Origin: a virus
Lineage: Duplodnaviria > Heunggongvirae > Uroviricota > Caudoviricetes
IMG/VR virus record: IMGVR_UViG_2609459852_000009
Strand: one strand, 5' to 3'
Length of the DNA: 14,095 nucleotides
Shown here: piece by piece, positions 58-11,619 of the stretch
How positions within the stretch are numbered: position 1 is the stretch's first letter
Layout: every line of letters begins with the position of its first letter
The notes under the pieces: model-generated
Databases searched by the model: none
What the model was told of the DNA's origin: nothing
What the model saw: only the letters and a program-made list of their open reading frames with translations
Made by a program: the position numbers and the translations under genes

Positions 58-2024
<1,967 letters not shown>

Positions 2025-2097
2025 GAGTGTTCCCTTTGTGGTGTAGGAACCTTAAGGAAACAACATGTTGGGTGGAGCGGACAATCCAAATGGTGAA

Positions 2098-2345: not shown

Positions 2346-3395
2346 TTAGGCCAGCACACCAATTGCCAGCGCGCGATCGATAAATCGAAAAATCAGCTCC
2401 AGTTGGGAGCCATACTTCTCTTCAAATGCCACGGTATCCGTATGCAACTCGTCGTGATGCTTTCTGCACAAAGGCAACACAAAGAGATCATGTGCTTTGG
2501 TTCCCATTCCGCCCTGCCCGTGACCAATCAGATGATGCGGATCGTCGGCTGGCATACCGCAGCAAGCACACGGCTGTGTCTTAACCCAGCGTGTGTATTT
2601 CTCCTTAACCCAACGGTGACGTTTAGGCAGCTTCATGAAAGATTCCGGAGACTCTGGATCAACGGTGATGCTTACCACCGTCTTTTCCTGTGATGGGTTT
2701 TGTTGCTGGTGGGCGTGAGGCAACGGTGCAAGATTTTTTGTGCGCTGTTTCAATATGCTGGTGGCGGTCTGCTCTCCCGGTACGATGTCGCTTTCGCGGT
2801 ACACCGAGCAGTTTTTTTCCGCTGGTAATCCCAGCGAGCGACGTAATACCACTTCCGGTAGCGCGTCCGCCACCTGATTGCGGACCGCCCACCAGGATAA
2901 TTCAGCCAGAGATAATTCACGCTCCTGCGTACCGCTTATTGCGTGACCGATGACGTCAATCATCCATGCTGACAGGTTTTGATGAGCAAGTTGCTCGAGT
3001 GATTCGGATGTCTGGTCACGCAGCTGGTTGTCGCAGTGCCAGCACAACACCATTGCGCCGGTACCATAACGGTGAATAACGGTTTCGCTGTGATGATAAT
3101 CGCCGTGTGGCCACTGGCAGGATTTAATATGGCGCAACAGCCAGTCAGACAATGCACCAGCACCACCAGCAGCACGAATTACCCGTGCGTTACTGAAAAA
3201 CGGCAGCAATGTTTTGTCTTCCACCAGCGGCTGGCGAACGGCAGGAACGACCCCGGACGGCAGATTACGCATGCTTTTCGGTTCCGGCTCCACCAGTACC
3301 CGGGTATTGTGGAATACCGGCATGGATTCACGGCCCGGCTTAACGACCACCAGCCCGAGTTCCGGTACCAGAACAGGTCGAAGTAATACCCGCAC
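2346..3395 (-). CDS. ydfU: YdfU-like DUF968 prophage protein with C-terminal HNH-like Cys/His motif
   Basis: 349-aa ORF, GTG start at 3395 (a downstream ATG start is possible). C-terminal CACCG...DPHHLIGH...KAHD...CRKHH resembles an HNH/zinc-binding motif. Length and position match my memory of ydfU. Confidence 0.75.
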
Positions 3396-4120: not shown

Positions 4121-4152
4121 GAAAATAAAAACAAAAACCCGCCGAAGCGGGT
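4121..4152 (-). terminator. Rho-independent terminator at the 3' end of the hok transcript
   Basis: On the minus strand: stem ACCCGC / GCGGGT with TTCG loop, followed by TTTTTGTTTTTATTTT. Confidence 0.7.
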
Positions 4153-4221
4153 TAAGTGCGGGTGCGTTGAGGATGCCTGCCACATCAGAGGTGGCGAGGG
4201 ATTTCTCCCTCGCCGGGTCTC

Positions 4222-4377
4222 TTACTCCTCAGGTTCGTAAGCTGTGAAGACAGCGACCTCCGTCTGGCCGGTTCGGATTCGTACCTCGCAAAGGTCTTTC
4301 CTCGTTACCAGTGCCGTCACTATGACGGTTAAACAGATGACGATCAGGGCGATTAACATCGCCTTTTGCTGCTTCAT
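4222..4377 (-). CDS. hokD: Hok-family type I toxin (HokD/RelF-like membrane peptide)
   Basis: Internal ATG at 4375-4377 with AAGGAG upstream gives MKQQKAMLIALIVICLTVIVTALVTRKDLCEVRIRTGQTEVAVFTAYEPEE, which I recognise as Hok family. The 70-aa track ORF is an in-frame upstream extension. Confidence 0.85.
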   Translation of the reverse strand: MKQQKAMLIALIVICLTVIVTALVTRKDLCEVRIRTGQTEVAVFTAYEPEE

Positions 4378-4555
4378 AGCCTGCTTCTCCTTGCCTTTCG
4401 GCACGTAAGAGGCTAACCTACATGTGTCTAGCATGAAATTGGCCTCAGATTAATGTTAAGCGTCTTGCAGGACGCGTAATGTTAACTGGGGCTTTTCTCT
4501 ATCTGCCGTTGGTGTTCATGCCCGAGGCAGATAGCCTCAAGCACCCGCAGCCATT
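4378..4555 (-). promoter_or_regulatory. hok mRNA 5' leader with conserved stem-loop (possible mok/sok regulatory region)
   Basis: Minus-strand GCTTGAGGCTATCTGCCTC (plus 4524-4542) forms a GAGGC/GCCTC hairpin and resembles the conserved 5' element of hok mRNAs as I recall them. Exact sok and mok boundaries are not resolved. Confidence 0.45.
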
Positions 4556-4842
4556 CTACTTAACTACCGTTACCTCGCCAATGTGAAATCAGTCAGAAAG
4601 GCGATCCATAAGAACAATAGCAAGACAATAAATCGCCATTACAGCCGTAATAGCCAGCGCACATTTGAGAACCAGCACCACAACCTCCTGTATTGGACGT
4701 ACACCAGTCCTGATGAATATGAGGCTGTCTCGTCAGTGATTCAATACAACTATTGGGTATAGTTTCTCTGATTTTTTCTGTGGAAATGGGGCTCAACCAC
4801 TAGTCATTTAATACGCAAAGTCCGACACAAGCTAACCTTCTA

Positions 4843-4866
4843 GTCCGCTTTGAGCGAGGAGCGGAC
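4843..4866. repeat. Hairpin GTCCGCT-N10-AGCGGAC at the left edge of the AT-rich island
   Basis: 7-bp perfect stem with a 10-nt loop; same architecture as the hairpin at 7332-7355; the stem contains the GTCCGCT motif found in the IS21-family termini. Confidence 0.5.
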
Positions 4867-5186
4867 CTTGTGTAAAAATCCCCATACCGGTTGATCGCGC
4901 TGAATGTTAGGTTCATAAACGACACAGGGTACATCGTAATGCTGCTCTATTGCTTCGTAAGTGATTCCCAATCGCTGCATCACTCGCTGAGAAGGAGTTC
5001 GACAACAGCCACTAAATAGTTGTGCATAGAGAACGACTGGAAAAGGCCGTAGGAACTTACAAATCTCAATTCACGGTAGAGTATGATATGGGTATTCAAT
5101 ATAAATACAGCCCTCAAAGGTTTAAATATGAACGGAAGTGTTAAAAACAATCTATCGTCAAAAAAGTACAAGCTAAAAGAAAAATT

Positions 5187-5474
5187 TTGAATTTGAATCG
5201 CGAGCTTTCTAATGGAAAGATCACTCAGGCTGATTATTGTCTATACAAAAAACTGTTTGAAGACTACATTCAGGTATTAACATTTCAACACACAAGAATT
5301 TTTGTGGAAAAAGATTTAATAGAACTATCAAATCATCGAAGTGGAGTATTCATTACAACTCAGCATGATACATTAGTAAATAGACTTGACAAAATTGATT
5401 ATGAAATTGACAGATTAAAAAACTGTTTAAATAAAAAAATTATCGATTACACAAAATTCACATCCCTATATTAG
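5187..5474 (+). CDS. Questionable small ORF (95 aa), TTG start only
   Basis: No ATG in frame and no clear Shine-Dalgarno; AT-rich; convergent with the 484-aa gene. Confidence 0.25.
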   Translation: MNLNRELSNGKITQADYCLYKKLFEDYIQVLTFQHTRIFVEKDLIELSNHRSGVFITTQHDTLVNRLDKIDYEIDRLKNCLNKKIIDYTKFTSLY

Positions 5475-5565
5475 GATTTTCTAAGAGTACGACACCGTCA
5501 CATTTAAATATTATTTGTAGAGGTAAAATGACAGCCTGACGGCGGTATTTCATTGCGAAATGCTA

Positions 5566-5590
5566 TTTAAAAGACCGCATTGAGCGGTCT
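5566..5590. terminator. Hairpin between convergent ORFs, likely terminator for the 484-aa gene
   Basis: GACCGC-ATTGA-GCGGTC stem-loop at 5573-5589; on the minus strand it is followed by TTTTAAA. Confidence 0.5.
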
Positions 5591-5626
5591 TATGTATCTC
5601 ACAACATATTACAGAATGACTTTAAA

Positions 5627-7081
5627 CTATTGTTTTAATAACATTTCAAAATCCTCATTCCAGTGCGTGTTTTGTGAAATACGGGTATCAATTTCATCAA
5701 GCAGCATATCATGAGAAAGTATGCTTAAAGGGTCATTCCCATTTTTACCAAAACGCATCGTAGTTTCTGCTATTTCCCAATCTTCTGCGCTGATTGATGG
5801 CTGTATTGCATGGCAGTAGATAGCCTTCACATCCTTTTCATGACAGTCAAAATTATTGATGCTTTCTGCAATTTTACGAGCTCTTTCAATTTCGACAACT
5901 GGACCATGTAAAGTTTCATATGATATATGCACAATTGTAGGGGTATTATCTGGAACCTGTCGTACCGCTTTGCTTAAGTGCGTTTTAATATCTTTTGCTT
6001 TTTTATTAATCGATTCCTCTGCTATACATTCCCAACGAGCACAGTAACCAGAGTGTATTCCAGTGCAAAAAATGTTAAGTATATCAACACCGTCGTCCGG
6101 ACCTACTCGTACAAGTCCTTTTGGGGCACAAAGATGAGTGTAATTTTCGCTGCTGCTAAAACTTCCGGCCAACAACGAAACCATCTGTGGAGAGTTCCAT
6201 TTAACCATGTATTTATCAAAATGCTCATTGATATTTTTCATATCTATTCTATTAATCAGTATTATAATTTCATCATTTTCTATTCTCAGTGACTTTCTCG
6301 TCGAGATATTAGACTTTATTTCATTGAAGATTTTTGCTAAAATATATTCATCTGTATCTTTTACTTCAACCTTGAAAAGCACGTCTAAAAATATGTTTTG
6401 TCTAGACTGAGTTAGAATAGGTACTAAATTGAGCCATCTTTGCCTCCATTCTCGACGCTCATTTTCAGAATATTCAGTCACTTTAGATAAACGCTTACAT
6501 TCCACAAAAAAGCTTTCTTCACCTTTAGTAACTTTTAAATCAGGAGTTTTATTTAATGCTGTTTCTGGAATAAATTCTACTCTATAACCATTGCGCGCAT
6601 ACATAATCGCAACAACTAATTCAAACAATGTTGAATCAGGTTGATTTATTTTACCGTTAAGAAATTCCGAAAGTTTTTCATCAATCCCAACAATTTTTTT
6701 TGCAAGCTCAATATGTCTTCCAACAGCCGCAAAAAAGGGAAATACTCGGGCTGATTGCGCTAACTCGCTAACTAAAGGCCGTTCATGTAAGCATTCTACA
6801 AGAAAAAGATACCATGCAACCCAATCCTCATGAAATGCCACCCTATTTTTTGGCTCTTCCATACTCTTCATTGCTTGGTCAAAATTCTTATAGGTGTTAT
6901 CTTCCTGTTCTCTGAAGTACTTGACTACATTTTTTTTGCGAGTCTCCCAAGTATCCTTTTCCAGATAAGATAAAAACCAGTCCAATGCAATTTTCGTATG
7001 ATGATGCCAGGGACTGGTATCCGTTGCTGCAAAAATCTCTTGTAGTTCTTTTGAATATTCCAATGTCTGTGTGTTAGCCAT
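5627..7081 (-). CDS. 484-aa protein with central PD-(D/E)xK nuclease-like signature; candidate defence or toxin nuclease
   Basis: ATG at 7079-7081 with GAGG 5 nt upstream; downstream hairpin. Motif E154 (FELVVAIMY), P180-D181 (TPDLKV), E194-C-K196 (FFVECKRL) at nt 6494-6622. GC content visibly lower than flanks. No named family recognised. Confidence 0.85.
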   Translation of the reverse strand: MANTQTLEYSKELQEIFAATDTSPWHHHTKIALDWFLSYLEKDTWETRKKNVVKYFREQEDNTYKNFDQAMKSMEEPKNRVAFHEDWVAWYLFLVECLHERPLVSELAQSARVFPFFAAVGRHIELAKKIVGIDEKLSEFLNGKINQPDSTLFELVVAIMYARNGYRVEFIPETALNKTPDLKVTKGEESFFVECKRLSKVTEYSENERREWRQRWLNLVPILTQSRQNIFLDVLFKVEVKDTDEYILAKIFNEIKSNISTRKSLRIENDEIIILINRIDMKNINEHFDKYMVKWNSPQMVSLLAGSFSSSENYTHLCAPKGLVRVGPDDGVDILNIFCTGIHSGYCARWECIAEESINKKAKDIKTHLSKAVRQVPDNTPTIVHISYETLHGPVVEIERARKIAESINNFDCHEKDVKAIYCHAIQPSISAEDWEIAETTMRFGKNGNDPLSILSHDMLLDEIDTRISQNTHWNEDFEMLLKQ

Positions 7082-7331
7082 TTTGACCTCATCATTGTTA
7101 ATTTATGAGATTTTACAACTTATAATGCATCTTCCAGATCGAGCCTCCAAGTAAGAAATCAGGCTAAATCAGACAGATATGTAATATATCCCTAGTCAAT
7201 TAGGCAGTCCACCCATAAATCCTAACAGTACGAAAATGGTTGGAACGTTATCCTAGGTTACTGCTCATCGTTTCCTTATGACCTCAATATATAAATATCC
7301 CAGCTCTTGCGGTTCGATTGTATGATTGACA

Positions 7332-7355
7332 GTCCGCTCTTGGCACAAAGCGGAC
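7332..7355. repeat. Hairpin GTCCGCT-N10-AGCGGAC at the right edge of the AT-rich island
   Basis: Same 7-bp stem and 10-nt loop architecture as 4843-4866. Reverse complement of 7346-7357 (GTTGTCCGCTTT) is identical to IS positions 63-74. Confidence 0.5.
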
Positions 7356-7452
7356 AACCACGCCAGATCTACCCTGTGCCATGAAAAATGAGAATGTCAA
7401 TTCACTCCTGAACTAATGCTTTTTAATCTAGTAACGTCTAAAATACCTAACA

Positions 7453-7854
7453 TTATCCCTGATAAAATGCCAGTATGCGCTGCATAACTTCACTCATCCG
7501 GCACTCGCGACAGATTATGTTTAGGCGACTGTCGTAGCGACGTATTTCTCCATCAGGTAACGACCAGATAAGGTCCGGATCAACCACAGCTGTTTTCTTC
7601 ACCTTTGCCCTCGATAGTTTTTTGCGGGCGTTTTGCCAGTCCTTACGCGCCTGTTCAGACGGGAATAACCCGTAGCCGGAGTTGTATACATCGCCACTGG
7701 CTACCAGCTCTCTGGCAAGAACGCTCATCAGATATCTAGTCGCACCTGTTTTAGCTTCCAGTTGCCGTAACGTCTCACGACCACTCTGGCGCACGAGTTC
7801 CACCACCTGCCCTTTAATTTTTTCCCGCTCTTCTTGTGTAAAAACTTTTGCCAC
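7453..7854 (-). CDS. Hypothetical prophage protein (133 aa) immediately downstream of the O-like gene
   Basis: GTG start at 7852-7854 with AAGGGGG 5 nt upstream; basic protein; function unknown. Confidence 0.65.
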   Translation of the reverse strand: MAKVFTQEEREKIKGQVVELVRQSGRETLRQLEAKTGATRYLMSVLARELVASGDVYNSGYGLFPSEQARKDWQNARKKLSRAKVKKTAVVDPDLIWSLPDGEIRRYDSRLNIICRECRMSEVMQRILAFYQG

Positions 7855-7894: not shown

Positions 7895-8860
7895 TTATCC
7901 TCTGAAACCAGGCGGAATTTCTGTATCCGGTTCAGAAATATGATTCACACAACGCTGTACAGGTGAACGTCCCAGGCGGATGACCAGTTCGTCCCATTTT
8001 TCGCGGAGTTTTGACGGGCTCATGATGTTTTTTACCCAGAATGGATCCCGCTGTACCCGACCAAACATTTCGCAAATTTGTCTGTGGCTTCTGCCATCCA
8101 GCATCCGCATTGTGCGCACGTCATTGGCCCAGGCTGTCCAGTTAGGCTCTTTTGGTCGCATGATCTCTCCATCGTCGCTGGCAGCCTGTTCGTAAAGGTT
8201 CACGATCCGCCCCCAAATCCACTGCGCACACGCCAAATCCTCCCTGCTACCCCACTGGCGTTTTTTCACACTAAACACAACCGCGTCGGGGTTCCGAGTT
8301 AAAAAATCCTGTTCAGTCGTCTGCGGGTCCGGTTGCGAAGCTTCCGGACGAAAAGTGTTTTTATTCTCTGTAGTAATCTCTGTTGTATTTTCTGTAAGAT
8401 CATTGGGCCATTTTGACCCGATGACATTGGGTCGTTTTGAACCAATGGAGCGTTTCATTTTGACCTCTTCCATCGTGTCATTTTGACCTGATGGAGCGGC
8501 GCATTTTGAACCGATGGATTCGTTCAATTTGCCACCATCTAAAAGCTCGCTCCCATAGTTGATCGTGTAGAAATTGGTCATATCGCGCTTTGATTTATTG
8601 AGCTTTTCACAACGCAAAAGCCCCAGCGTTTTCAGACTTGCAAACGCGCGCTTTAACGTTGACTCTGACCAGAATGGGAACTGTTCCAGCCATTGTTCCG
8701 TTGTGTTATAAATCCAGCGAACACCATCACATTCCATACCGGAGTTGGTATCTCTCAACCAGTAGTGCAGTTGTTGCAAAACAATGGCTTCGTTTAAGCC
8801 GATTTTCATTGCCAGCTGCGTGTTTATAACCAGTGGGCGTTCAGCAAAAAGAAGACTCAT
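7895..8860 (-). CDS. Phage replication initiator (lambda O-like, N-terminal origin-binding type) with in-gene iterons
   Basis: N-terminus MSLLFAERPLVINTQLAMKIGLNEAIVLQQLHYWLRDTN is typical of phage replication-initiator N-domains as I recall them. Repeated IGSK peptide units are encoded by the tandem DNA iterons. ATG at 8858-8860 preferred over the upstream TTG at 8914. Confidence 0.8.
   Translation of the reverse strand: MSLLFAERPLVINTQLAMKIGLNEAIVLQQLHYWLRDTNSGMECDGVRWIYNTTEQWLEQFPFWSESTLKRAFASLKTLGLLRCEKLNKSKRDMTNFYTINYGSELLDGGKLNESIGSKCAAPSGQNDTMEEVKMKRSIGSKRPNVIGSKWPNDLTENTTEITTENKNTFRPEASQPDPQTTEQDFLTRNPDAVVFSVKKRQWGSREDLACAQWIWGRIVNLYEQAASDDGEIMRPKEPNWTAWANDVRTMRMLDGRSHRQICEMFGRVQRDPFWVKNIMSPSKLREKWDELVIRLGRSPVQRCVNHISEPDTEIPPGFRG
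8405..8525. repeat. Five tandem ~23-bp iterons (putative phage replication origin) inside the O-like gene
   Basis: TTTTGA(C/A) cores beginning at 8411, 8435, 8458, 8481 and 8504 (spacings 24, 23, 23, 23 bp); AT-rich stretch 8350-8400 lies alongside. Confidence 0.7.
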
Positions 8861-9362
8861 AATTCCATCCAGCTTTTTGTTGGTATTGCTGTCGATACGC
8901 AAGCTTGAAAGCAATTGCTTTTTCTATAAGTTCGTCAGTTTCACGATCTACAACGGCAGGATCTGCAAAAAGCAGTCCAGATTCCACCACATCGCCATAT
9001 TCTTTATTTAACCCGGCGATCATGTACGTAATACTTTTTCCATCACTGATCTCACGATACAACCTGAAATCACTAATCCGGATAGCCTCCATAATTGCAG
9101 GCACTAGCGCTGTGAACTTTTCACGCTTATCCCTGGTGTCGATAGCCTTCCAGCGTTCGAATATCTTCACTCGATTAACGCTAAGCGCTCGCTGATCAAC
9201 CGCGCCACCTTCATATGTGACACGCTGAACATCGATGTTCGGGCGCTCTTTCAAAGCCCAGAATGCTTCAGTGATTAATATCGTCGCCTGCTCCTGTGTC
9301 ATTCCTGGTCGACATATCCAGGCATCCAGAGCCTCACGAGCCTGTTCAGGAGTGATTTTCAT
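8841..9362 (-). CDS. YdaT-like protein in the cII position
   Basis: 173-aa ORF with ATG at 9360-9362. Overlaps the dicC stop by 17 nt and the O-like start by 20 nt. Conserved-looking KIFERW and ALVPAI segments recall YdaT-family proteins (memory only). Confidence 0.7.
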   Translation of the reverse strand: MKITPEQAREALDAWICRPGMTQEQATILITEAFWALKERPNIDVQRVTYEGGAVDQRALSVNRVKIFERWKAIDTRDKREKFTALVPAIMEAIRISDFRLYREISDGKSITYMIAGLNKEYGDVVESGLLFADPAVVDRETDELIEKAIAFKLAYRQQYQQKAGWNYESSFC

Positions 9363-9573
9363 TGTTCAACCGCCCCGCCCGCTTCGTCTTACGATATTCG
9401 TCATAAACTTTGGGATCATACTGAAGCTCCCCGCCAGATGCCTCCTGTAGACGCATCGCGCGACCTTCAGGAACCAGTATCCCCCAAGCAGCAACACTTG
9501 CCAGTCTCACTCCTGCGGCATTGGCAAGCTTTGTTTTGCTGCCAAAAAAAGTAATTGCGTCAACTTTAAGCAT
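9346..9573 (-). CDS. dicC: DicC-like Cro-type regulator
   Basis: 75 aa from the ATG at 9571-9573; HTH-like GSKTKLANAAGVRLASV; divergent from dicA across an operator-bearing 80-bp spacer; recognised as DicC. Confidence 0.85.
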   Translation of the reverse strand: MLKVDAITFFGSKTKLANAAGVRLASVAAWGILVPEGRAMRLQEASGGELQYDPKVYDEYRKTKRAGRLNNENHS

Positions 9574-9586
9574 CAAAGCCCCCTCT

Positions 9587-9653: not shown

Positions 9654-10061
9654 ATGGATACAAGAACCCTAGGCCAGCGAGTTCTGGCGCGACGAAAAGA
9701 ATTACGCTTAACACAACGAGAAGCTGCGCGCCTCGCTGGAGTTGCTCACGTCACAATTTCACAATGGGAAAGAGACGAAACCCAGCCAGTCGGAAAACGA
9801 TTGTTTGCTTTAGCGGATGCTCTGAAGTGCTCACCTACATGGCTAATGTTTGGTGACGAAGACAAGGCACCAGTGCCTGCACAAGAACTTCATGTGGAAA
9901 CAGAGCTAACTCCCAACCACAAAGAATTGATCGAATTATTCGATGCTCTTCCATCTTCCGAGCAGGAAGCCTTGCTGTCTGAAATGCGCGCAAGAGTAGA
10001 AAACTTCAACAAACTCTTCGAAGAAATGCTTAAAGCGCGTAAAAATAAATCAATAAAATAA
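9654..10061 (+). CDS. dicA: DicA-like Xre-family HTH repressor (cI analogue)
   Basis: 135-aa ORF; HTH LTQREAARLAGVAHVTISQWE; divergent partner dicC; followed by ydfA, dicF and dicB. Confidence 0.9.
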   Translation: MDTRTLGQRVLARRKELRLTQREAARLAGVAHVTISQWERDETQPVGKRLFALADALKCSPTWLMFGDEDKAPVPAQELHVETELTPNHKELIELFDALPSSEQEALLSEMRARVENFNKLFEEMLKARKNKSIK

Positions 10062-11203: not shown

Positions 11204-11261
11204 TTTCTGGTGACGTTTGGCGGTATCAGTTTTACTCCGTGACTGCTCTGCCGCCGTTTTT
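11204..11261 (+). ncRNA. dicF: DicF small regulatory RNA (ftsZ-targeting sRNA) with terminator
   Basis: TTTCTGGTGACGTTTGGCGGTATCAGTTTTACTCCGTGACTGCTCTGCCGCC followed by GTTTTT matches DicF as I remember it; terminal GGCGG...CCGCC hairpin plus U-run; located just upstream of dicB. Confidence 0.8.
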
Positions 11262-11430
11262 AAAGTGAATTTTGTGATGCGGTGAATGCGGCTAAGCACA
11301 CGCGGAACAGTTAAAACCAAAAACAGTGTTATGGGTGGATTCTCTGTATCCGGCGTTAATTGTTAACTGGTTAACGTCACCTGGAGGCACCAGGCACTGC
11401 ATCACAAAATTCATTGTTGAGGACGCGATA

Positions 11431-11619
11431 ATGAAAACGTTATTACCAAACGTTAATACGTCTGAAGGTTGTTTTGAAATTGGTGTCACTATCAGTAACC
11501 CTGTATTTACTGAAGATGCCATTAACAAGAGAAAACAAGAACGGGAGCTATTAAATAAAATATGCATTGTTTCAATGCTGGCTCGTTTACGTCTGATGCC
11601 AAAAGGATGTGCACAATGA
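11431..11619 (+). CDS. dicB: DicB cell-division inhibitor
   Basis: Internal ATG at 11431 gives the 62-aa protein MKTLLPNVNTSEGCFEIGVTISNPVFTEDAINKRKQERELLNKICIVSMLARLRLMPKGCAQ, recognised as DicB. Confidence 0.9.
   Translation: MKTLLPNVNTSEGCFEIGVTISNPVFTEDAINKRKQERELLNKICIVSMLARLRLMPKGCAQ

Follow-up and report, generated by a model that had tools for sequence, protein, structure and literature searches.

The window analyzed here, the whole stretch of 14,095 nucleotides (nt) of the virus record IMGVR_UViG_2609459852_000009 (IMG/VR; Caudoviricetes), contains two 24-bp hairpin sites that are, as judged by comparison with related phages, the left and right boundary sites of an exchangeable slot for cassettes of accessory genes. 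A site that we call type A lies at 4843–4866 (GTCCGCT-TTGAGCGAGG-AGCGGAC) and a site that we call type B at 7332–7355 (GTCCGCT-CTTGGCACAA-AGCGGAC), both as exact matches to a pattern of two 7-bp arms around a 10-nt loop. The sites are probably core-type DNA recombination sites that delimit exchangeable cassettes at accessory and anti-phage-defense hot spots of temperate phages, prophages, and plasmids of enterobacteria, a reading suggested by the positions at which related sequences diverge.

Results

Two hairpin sites bound the cassette slot

A pattern search for GTCCGCT-N10-AGCGGAC gave exactly these two matches in the window and none across 200 dinucleotide-preserving shuffles of it. The 7-mer GTCCGCT occurs eight times in the window versus 1.23 expected occurrences. 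Site A consists of an outer arm (4843–4849), a core, TGAGCGA (4851–4857), two cargo-linked loop bases (4858–4859), and an inner arm (4860–4866). Site B has an inner arm at 7332–7338, two cargo-linked loop bases at 7339–7340, a core, TGGCACA, at 7341–7347, and an outer arm at 7349–7355. Both cores place a GC at the exact center of the 24-bp site. As the original prediction from the letters of the window had it, the hairpins are real and bracket an island. The 2,465 bp between them (4867–7331) are AT-rich and compositionally distinct, with a GC content of 0.29–0.39 versus about 0.45–0.55 in the flanks.

The assignment of these sites as boundaries comes from three phages, mEp460_ev081, Evi, and Tritos, in which both flanks of the window are found at 89–99.8% identity with other genes between them. 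Both sites are present in each of the three, with one arm mismatch in site A of mEp460_ev081 and of Tritos and in site B of Tritos, and their similarity to the window ends at, or a few bases from, the inner edge of each hairpin; mEp460_ev081 shares just the first 6 nt past hairpin A. Many alternative cargos occupy the same slot, between a Ren-like gene and hok, in other phages. The cargo of the window is itself present, full-length and at a minimum of 99.7% identity, in 11 of 5,426 complete Escherichia coli genomes; each of the three that were inspected has the DUF977 gene on one side and hokD on the other. An identical copy was found in another IMG/VR contig, L039.

Sites A and B follow a grammar

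An exact pattern scan of viral contigs yielded at least 120 loci. Most of the listed matches carry one of two loop cores, TGAGCGA (type A) or TGGCACA (type B), and about 19 listed matches with other loops look like chance. The arrangement of the sites was read from a set of 99 loci (about 0.98 Mb) made up of the viral contigs among the matches listed, GenBank phages, E. coli prophages, and the window; the set was built allowing two arm mismatches, and each locus was oriented. It contains 181 A/B sites in 76 distinct neighboring pairs. Site A is followed by site B in 51 of the 76, with gaps of 541–4147 nt, and the orientation of the window agrees with all 51 of these cargo-spanning pairs. Site B is followed by site A in another 18, and the gap in 16 of the 18 is 0–27 nt (mode 18), with a spacer that usually contains TAAC. 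From these counts (51 A>B and 18 B>A), the cassette is A–cargo–B, and arrays of up to three or four cassettes take the form A–cargo–B–spacer–A–cargo–B. The original prediction had pointed to the edges of other variable cassettes as a place to look for the hairpin, and it is found there across phages, prophages, and plasmids.

The sequence outside site A of the window (4827–4842, 16 nt, with TAAC at 4833–4836) resembles, in a by-eye comparison with loci L123, L038, L009, L042, and L083, the 15–18-nt spacers between B and A in tandem junctions. The 24 bp upstream of this flank (4803–4826) may be a decayed B site, although this assignment is speculative. On the inner side of the sites, several unrelated cargos open, immediately beside site A, with a common stretch of ∼30 nt, ATTGCTAACAGCrTyCTGTGyGAATCA (L008 3174–3205, L018 2829–2860, and L085 1330–1360; also L052, L019, and L118). 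The cargo-side half-sites extend to AAYGTCCGCT and AGCGGACRTT, and the cargo thus has short terminal inverted repeats.

Cargo is diverse and has moved between unrelated backbones

We distinguished 37 cargos, which comprise one to four genes on either strand and range in GC content from 0.32 to 0.51. Defense proteins encoded in them include PD-T7-1, PD-T7-5, defense-associated reverse transcriptases (DRT) with or without SLATT, PDC-S15, PDC-S35, TIR, and HEPN, and other cargo enzymes belong to the GNAT, NUDIX, and HAD families. Among several ideas, it had been proposed from the window alone that the hairpins are sites that mobilized or targeted the cassette. This proposal fits the comparisons, in which homology breaks at the hairpins and the same cargo is found in unrelated backbones. 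Between a lambdoid locus (L082) and a P2-like locus (L113), the only homology found is a segment of 1,033 bp, 99.7% identical, that opens with the first base of A and closes with the last base of B. Loci L001 and L019 likewise have 1,966 bp in common, from hairpin to hairpin. A search with exact flank patterns found no empty slot, that is, no single hybrid site between two flanks, and no cargo was seen in flipped orientation. The orientation of the A–cargo–B unit relative to early phage transcription varies, with B first in the window and in P2 and A first in locus L106.

The joints fall inside the loop cores

When sites with the same outer flank and different cargo are compared position by position, identity stays at the random level on the cargo side, including its two loop bases, and is high in the core and beyond it; sites with the same cargo and different flanks give the reverse profile. 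In eight B-flank and four A-flank families, each with three or more cargo types, the backbone-proximal loop bases are set by the flank, and the inner arm, together with the two loop bases next to the cargo, changes from one cargo to another. The loop of site B always ends in ...CACAA beside lambdoid flanks, mostly in ...CACAG on the G side of P2, and in ...CACTC in a third family. One cargo carries GTTGGCACAA when its backbone is lambdoid and GTTGGCACAG when it is that of P2, such that the backbone-proximal loop base switches with the backbone. Comparison of this kind places the recombination joints inside the loop cores.

Deviations in the arms are mostly one-sided mismatches, and compensatory double changes are no commoner than independence predicts. 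One double change alone recurs, from C-G to T-A at pair 4, and its four cases are what independent changes would be expected to give. Asymmetries between G-T and C-A mismatches are opposite in A and B, with no consistent strand bias for G-U. By their substitutions, the arms are conserved as sequence and not as base pairs.

These substitutions bear on an alternative in which the hairpins have a role in RNA or transcription, whether as processing or stabilizing stem-loops, weak bidirectional terminators, insulators, or promoter elements. Perfect palindromic stems would indeed fold in transcripts of both strands, but the changes in the stems disrupt pairs instead of compensating, and the predicted stability is modest (−7.2 and −9.3 kcal/mol when folded as single-stranded DNA). 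The loops are 10 nt long, neither hairpin is followed by a T-run on either strand, and a terminator scan called neither site, in agreement with the earlier statement that these are not intrinsic terminators. A search of Rfam 15 that found sok and DicF elsewhere in the window gave no match at either hairpin up to E 1. The annotated V-operon terminator of P2 is a different sequence, about 300 bp further on. Cassettes also vary in their orientation relative to transcription and carry genes on both strands. A weak promoter-like match at 7346–7317 would use the loop of site B as a −35 element; it is the one such match in the window, its spacing is not kept in other cassettes, and loops as −35 elements were rejected as an explanation.

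A last point in favor of a role in RNA is that the loop of site B could pair with a downstream sequence. The outer flank of site B (7356–7380) contains CTGTGCC at 7374–7380, which is complementary to the GGCACAG-type loop core. Terminal B sites with lambdoid and P2 flanks have CTGTGCC(A) 18–19 nt later in the B+ orientation despite unrelated spacers, and the copy in P2 (L249, G-gene flank; about 15308–15314) is spaced as in the window. This partner is absent in the third flank family (loop GGCACTC), which shows no covariation, and in tandem junctions. A pseudoknot between the GGCACAG loop and CTGTGCC was rejected because the partner is missing in these two groups; CTGTGCC could be what is left of a decayed A site, or it could serve as a pairing partner. 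On balance, action of the hairpins in RNA or transcription appears improbable.

A proposed mechanism of exchange

In sequence comparison, the sites have dyad-symmetric arms around an asymmetric core, with joints inside the core, an anatomy that would fit a recombinase core-type site. The two arms could serve as half-sites for a protein dimer, with the asymmetric core as the crossover region. By the comparisons above, the outer arm and the adjoining part of the loop stay with the backbone, and the inner arm and two loop bases move with the cargo. A and B would represent two heterospecific sites, and A×A plus B×B exchange would swap the cargo. With heterospecific sites, cargo would be swapped in a fixed orientation and the slot would never be emptied. 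We infer that a dedicated enzyme makes the joints. It is conceivable, and we propose it tentatively, that the A/B sites belong to an undescribed cassette-exchange system with a putative trans-acting recombinase, similar to integrons but with paired heterospecific sites.

Several observations weigh against recombination at dedicated sites. Independent transfers between backbone families that fix the position of the joint are few: at B, two cargos are clearly resolved, and at A, two or three. Seven of the 76 neighboring pairs are irregular, and a few arrays violate the grammar (B>B, A>A, A->A+). Across lambdoid, P2-like, e14-like, and plasmid contexts, no recombinase is consistently linked to the sites and no neighboring gene is common to all four, and no integrase was found within 9–12 kb of the plasmid arrays. 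Tyrosine recombinases typically have overlaps of 6–8 bp, and the 10-bp center of the A/B sites is longer. A 200-residue FimB-like tyrosine recombinase (WP_023147793.1) is encoded between a decayed B and an A site, and thus at a cassette junction, in L255 (4418–5020, minus strand) and L019 (9384–9983). This protein was rejected as the cognate enzyme; it is sporadic and, because it has no close relatives in enterobacterial phage records, its gene is probably a sporadic insert. In addition, general or phage recombination through short shared homology would leave a similar footprint.

This last point can be extended to an explanation in which the sites are conserved for other reasons (expression, insulation, or protein binding) and exchange is carried out by RecA, Red, RecET, or Rad52-like annealases through microhomology. 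The lack of a linked recombinase in the contexts examined is in its favor, as is the presence of genes for RecE-like exonucleases and other recombination functions in the lambdoid hosts of the cassettes. Most of the exchanges are between phages that share long homologous flanks, and in a large 2026 survey of P2/P4 hot spots, homologous recombination is considered alongside illegitimate recombination. However, microhomology would not account for dyad symmetry and two conserved asymmetric cores across unrelated backbones and plasmids, for joints that fall in a 7-bp core and spare the equally long identical arms, or for the absence of empty slots. Moreover, in the transfer that involved a lambdoid and a P2-like phage, just 24 bp at each end were in common. 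We regard homologous exchange between sites conserved for another purpose as a rather unlikely alternative to core-type recombination sites.

Two other modes of movement were rejected. IS200/IS605-like single-strand transposition of a whole A...B unit does not fit the backbone-proximal loop bases, which remain with the backbone, and simple attP×attB integration does not fit two ends that carry different cores.

Distribution among phages, prophages, and plasmids

The contexts of the loci were assigned by tblastn with marker proteins, and host range was taken from BLAST comparisons with phages, E. coli genomes, and plasmids. Lambdoid marker proteins are matched by 36 loci, mostly in the lygF–hok slot. 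About 25 loci are in P2-like phages between the tail-fiber assembly gene G and the sheath gene FI, which is the Z/fun hot spot, and about five are in P2-like phages between gene A and gene Q, the old/tin or TO hot spot. The other loci are in part chance and in part other phage contexts (for example, behind a P-like helicase loader, or behind an O-like gene and a small activator). In phage P2, fun(Z) is bounded by a B site (15335–15358) and a decayed A site (17432–17455), the sole two sites in that genome. No A/B sites were found in P4, and loci first taken as P4-like turned out to be lambdoid.

A B–spacer–A query matched 3,309 of the 5,426 complete E. coli genomes and left 2,117 without a match; the median per genome is two matches and the maximum eight, always in unannotated intergenic DNA. 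Three cassettes are present in an e14-like prophage next to intE and three in a Qin-like prophage. In K-12, a decayed A-type site comes right after lit in e14 (L264 5597–5620; NC_000913 about 1199596–1199619), and a decayed B-type site lies beside relBE/hokD in Qin (L263 15982–16005; NC_000913 about 1645981–1646004). RefSeq has no annotation for either of these K-12 sites. The gene lit encodes the T4-exclusion protease of e14 and is adjacent to intE.

Matches were also found in 845 plasmid records, about half of them conjugative and led by Klebsiella, Enterobacter, Pantoea, and Escherichia. The grammar is the same, and most of the cargo consists of metabolic or accessory genes, chiefly for oxidoreductases, regulators, transporters, and ATPases. 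Large plasmids from Enterobacter, Pantoea, and Salmonella (IncF) carry such arrays, in NZ_CP119171 (L259; 130849–154914), NZ_CP155068 (L260; 67030–91584), and CP074295 (L261; 134054–152119), and the gaps at their junctions are 14–18 nt.

These copy numbers speak to whether the hairpins could be a chance pair of palindromes or a generic dispersed repeat, such as a repetitive extragenic palindromic (REP) element, unrelated to the island. Palindromes with 14 specified bases do arise by chance in very large databases, and a scan of genome contigs with a gapped pattern (AGCGGAC-N14–19-GTCCGCT) gave 120 hits of which all 120 were chance matches in unrelated taxa. Both forms of this explanation are nevertheless ruled out for the A/B sites by the shuffles, under which no match is expected in the window, by the two conserved loop classes, by the strict grammar, and by the low copy number; we consider them barely credible. 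REP elements and bacterial interspersed mosaic elements (BIME) occur in hundreds of copies per chromosome between ordinary genes, whereas the A/B sites are few per genome and always at cargo boundaries. The A/B family is not REP-like, because it is low-copy and tied to cassette boundaries, though dispersed among mobile elements. The original prediction had named a REP-like repeat with no relation to island boundaries as what would refute it, and the A/B family is not of this kind.

The neighboring IS21-like element

An IS21-like insertion sequence (IS) of the ISEc62 family occupies positions 1–2129 of the window on the minus strand (istB 58–855, istA 852–2024) and stands outside the A/B system. 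It is inserted in the antiterminator Q gene and is 100% identical to copies on many plasmids, which indicates a recent arrival. The original prediction had proposed that the hairpins could be IstA-type binding sites or relics of IS21-like ends. The motif behind this proposal does recur. The 8-mer TGTCCGCT is found in the IS termini at 42–49, 65–72, and 2076–2083 (minus strand) and again at 7349–7356 (minus strand). The 12-mer GTTGTCCGCTTT common to the IS and hairpin B is exact at 63–74 (plus strand), but its minus-strand copy lies at 7347–7358 and not, as first given, at 7346–7357. Beyond the four hairpin arms, the 7-mer lies at 43, 66, and 1927 (plus strand) and at 2076 (minus strand), with three of these copies near the IS tips and one (1927) within istA. 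The 7-mer, the 8-mer, and the 12-mer exceed shuffles, and the N terminus of IstA is weakly similar to a resolvase-type helix-turn-helix (HTH_7, E 3.7e-4, below the cut-off).

Despite these similarities, both readings, as IstA-type binding sites or as relics of IS21-type ends, are very improbable. Among about 100 hairpin loci, istA and istB are present in the window and its near-identical twin L039 only, whereas the family extends to the thousands of E. coli genomes and hundreds of plasmids described above. The same cassette and hairpins recur in strain L725, in which the Q gene is intact and the IS is missing, and two further strains have no IS at this position. Distances of 2.7 and 5.2 kb separate the hairpins from the IS, the ends of the cassette have no TGT...ACA termini, and the direct-repeat arrangement and target duplication expected of IS21 ends are missing. 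The terminal repeats of IS21 elements do share the motif (T)GTCCGCT, but they are direct or inverted single copies within about 80 bp of the tips and not 7-10-7 palindromes. Moreover, the IS motif and the hairpin family agree in the 7-mer alone; the bases that extend it to the 8-mer and the 12-mer vary across the family. A connection between the hairpins and the IS21-type element is not supported by these comparisons, and the IS is a strain-specific insertion. The coincidence of motifs is real but was noticed a posteriori. As a lead only, it might reflect a similar class of DNA-binding domain in IstA; given the weak HTH_7 match, a domain of this class might read both motifs. Both also fit TGTCYNNTA, which we take to be the resolvase half-site consensus, and this too is a lead only.

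Genes of the window

The window is part of a Qin/Rac-type lambdoid prophage with its early rightward operon on the minus strand. The repressor gene is on the plus strand (9654–10061), and the operon contains a cro-like gene (9346–9576), a cII-like gene (8841–9362), and an O-like replication gene with iterons (7895–8914). Several copies of CATTTTGA(A/C)C within the O-like gene, at about 8400–8540, resemble origin iterons. The backbone on the B side begins with a LygF/DUF977/Ren-like gene (7453–7854, minus strand; Pfam DUF977, PHROG 142, and phage annotations), the last of the replication module. On the A side are the antisense RNA sok (4372–4546, minus strand; Rfam sok, 115 bits) and the toxin gene hok/mok (4222–4434, minus strand; MokW/HokD in phage annotations). 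This complete hok/mok/sok type I toxin–antitoxin locus directly adjoins site A, and many lambdoid phages have it as the constant backbone neighbor of this slot. Two small genes and ydfU/DUF968 (2346–3395) also belong to the operon, as does a fragment of the antiterminator Q gene (2098–2343), which is interrupted by the IS after 81 codons, with the N-terminal part remaining.

A shorter palindrome, GTCCGC-CACCTGATT-GCGGAC, lies at 2865–2885 inside the ydfU/DUF968 coding sequence and is kept in phage Evi; it has no A/B cores and is probably unrelated to the A/B sites. A full-length DicF small RNA (11205–11256, plus strand; 72.5 bits) is followed by a sub-threshold STnc100-like match (11254–11463, plus strand), and a weak isrK-like match lies at 4132–4213 (minus strand).

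The main gene of the cargo encodes a protein of 484 residues (5627–7081, minus strand), which belongs to PHROG 37220 ("unknown function") and gave no match in Pfam, PADLOC, NCBIfam, or the PDB. By eye, the stretch TPDLKV...FFVECKR looks like a PD-(D/E)xK nuclease motif. Because it is an orphan with such a stretch, the gene is a candidate new defense gene. A second, uncertain cargo open reading frame encoding 95 residues (5187–5474, plus strand) comes from the list of open reading frames alone and matches no family. Just inside the cargo, an open reading frame of 47 codons (4840–4983, minus strand) in DNA of normal GC content crosses site A and may be a remnant of an earlier cargo gene.

Discussion

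The sites as such are not new, because GenBank records from 2004 already annotate them. Entries AJ512677, AJ512680, and AJ512685, each described as a "proviral Z-region" (of P2-EC31, P2-EC46, and P2-EC67), contain a "left inverted repeat" that ends at the inner edge of the B site (...AATCTGACA GTCCGCT CTGTGCCAGA AGYGGAM) and a "right inverted repeat" that starts at the A site (GTCTGYT TTTCGCTCAA AGCWRAC TGTCAGATT...). These repeats flank AT-rich "lysogenic conversion" open reading frames. The same arms as in the window are found in P2, in P2-EC31, P2-EC46, and P2-EC67, and in phage 899. A 2004 article by Nilsson, Karlsson, and Haggård-Ljungquist (Mol Biol Evol 21:1) goes with the three entries, and its title proposes site-specific recombination. 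The pair in the window is a member of this known kind of P2 Z-region repeat; the Z-region repeats are in P2-like phages, and those of the window are in a lambdoid (Qin/Rac-like) prophage, in the slot between the replication module and hok. In the accessible recent literature on P2/P4 hot spots there is no mention of A/B sites, and searches for the motif or repeat gave nothing relevant. The classification into A and B and their grammar, the placement of joints within the loops, the passage of cargo between lambdoid and P2-like backbones, and the occurrence in e14-like prophages and plasmids may or may not have been described earlier.

Of the known cassette systems, integrons share with the A/B sites the promoter-independent arrays of foreign, low-GC genes separated by structured sites. 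The attC site (59-base element) is built from two "simple sites," in each of which two 7-bp core sites face each other as inverted repeats, and the A/B junction B–spacer–A (7-10-7, spacer, 7-10-7) has a similar layout. However, in the sites and spacers read, the GTTRRRY/RYYYAAC cores are absent, with only TAAC present in many spacers. No intI or attI was found beside A/B arrays in the annotated neighborhoods sampled, and no genome-wide search was made for them. A/B joints are in both sites of a junction and not at a single point, the slots are inside phage genomes, and the cassettes often have one to four genes with their own promoters in either orientation.

The pdif modules of Acinetobacter plasmids are bounded by dif-related XerC/XerD sites of 28 bp (11-6-11), and neighboring modules have a single site between them. 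Like A/B cassettes, they are discrete accessory modules with short dyad-symmetric sites at their ends; a given module recurs in different replicons and encodes no recombinase of its own. The A/B arms, however, are unlike those of E. coli dif, cer, or psi, and each A/B junction has two site types. Recombinase-mediated cassette exchange with heterospecific lox or FRT sites offers another parallel, as the arms are the same and the cores different, orientation is kept, and cargo cannot be deleted, in line with the fixed orientation of A/B cargo and the lack of empty slots in the searches described above. That system is artificial, and the parallel is an analogy from engineering. The PeSL (promoter-early stem-loop) cassettes of T4-type phages are mobile and regulatory; a PeSL combines an early promoter with a stem-loop and is reported to act by homologous recombination in one phage family. 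Like the "boundary" or "linker" sequences of lambdoid phages, it is a short conserved motif with a stem-loop that borders variable phage genes and has been proposed to serve in shuffling. The A/B sites differ from PeSL in that they have no conserved promoter, are of two types, and are common to unrelated phage families and plasmids.

Anti-phage-defense hot spots in prophages and satellites are heavily studied, and the 2026 survey calls the swapping of systems, especially between unrelated elements, unknown. The A/B sites give a testable handle on this swapping, since a pair of 24-bp sites shows precisely where the swapped DNA starts and stops, in plasmids as well as in prophages of the lambdoid, P2-like, and e14-like kinds. 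They can be used as a search key for cassettes and candidate defense genes, such as the 484-residue orphan of the window, and for finding the protein that reads them; they could possibly also serve as natural landing pads for cassette exchange. For the window, a misleading link to the neighboring IS is removed. If the tentatively proposed exchange system exists, it would move defense and accessory cassettes among lambdoid, P2-like, and e14-like phages and conjugative plasmids across the Enterobacterales and would explain the placement of classical exclusion genes, namely fun(Z) of P2 and probably lit of e14.

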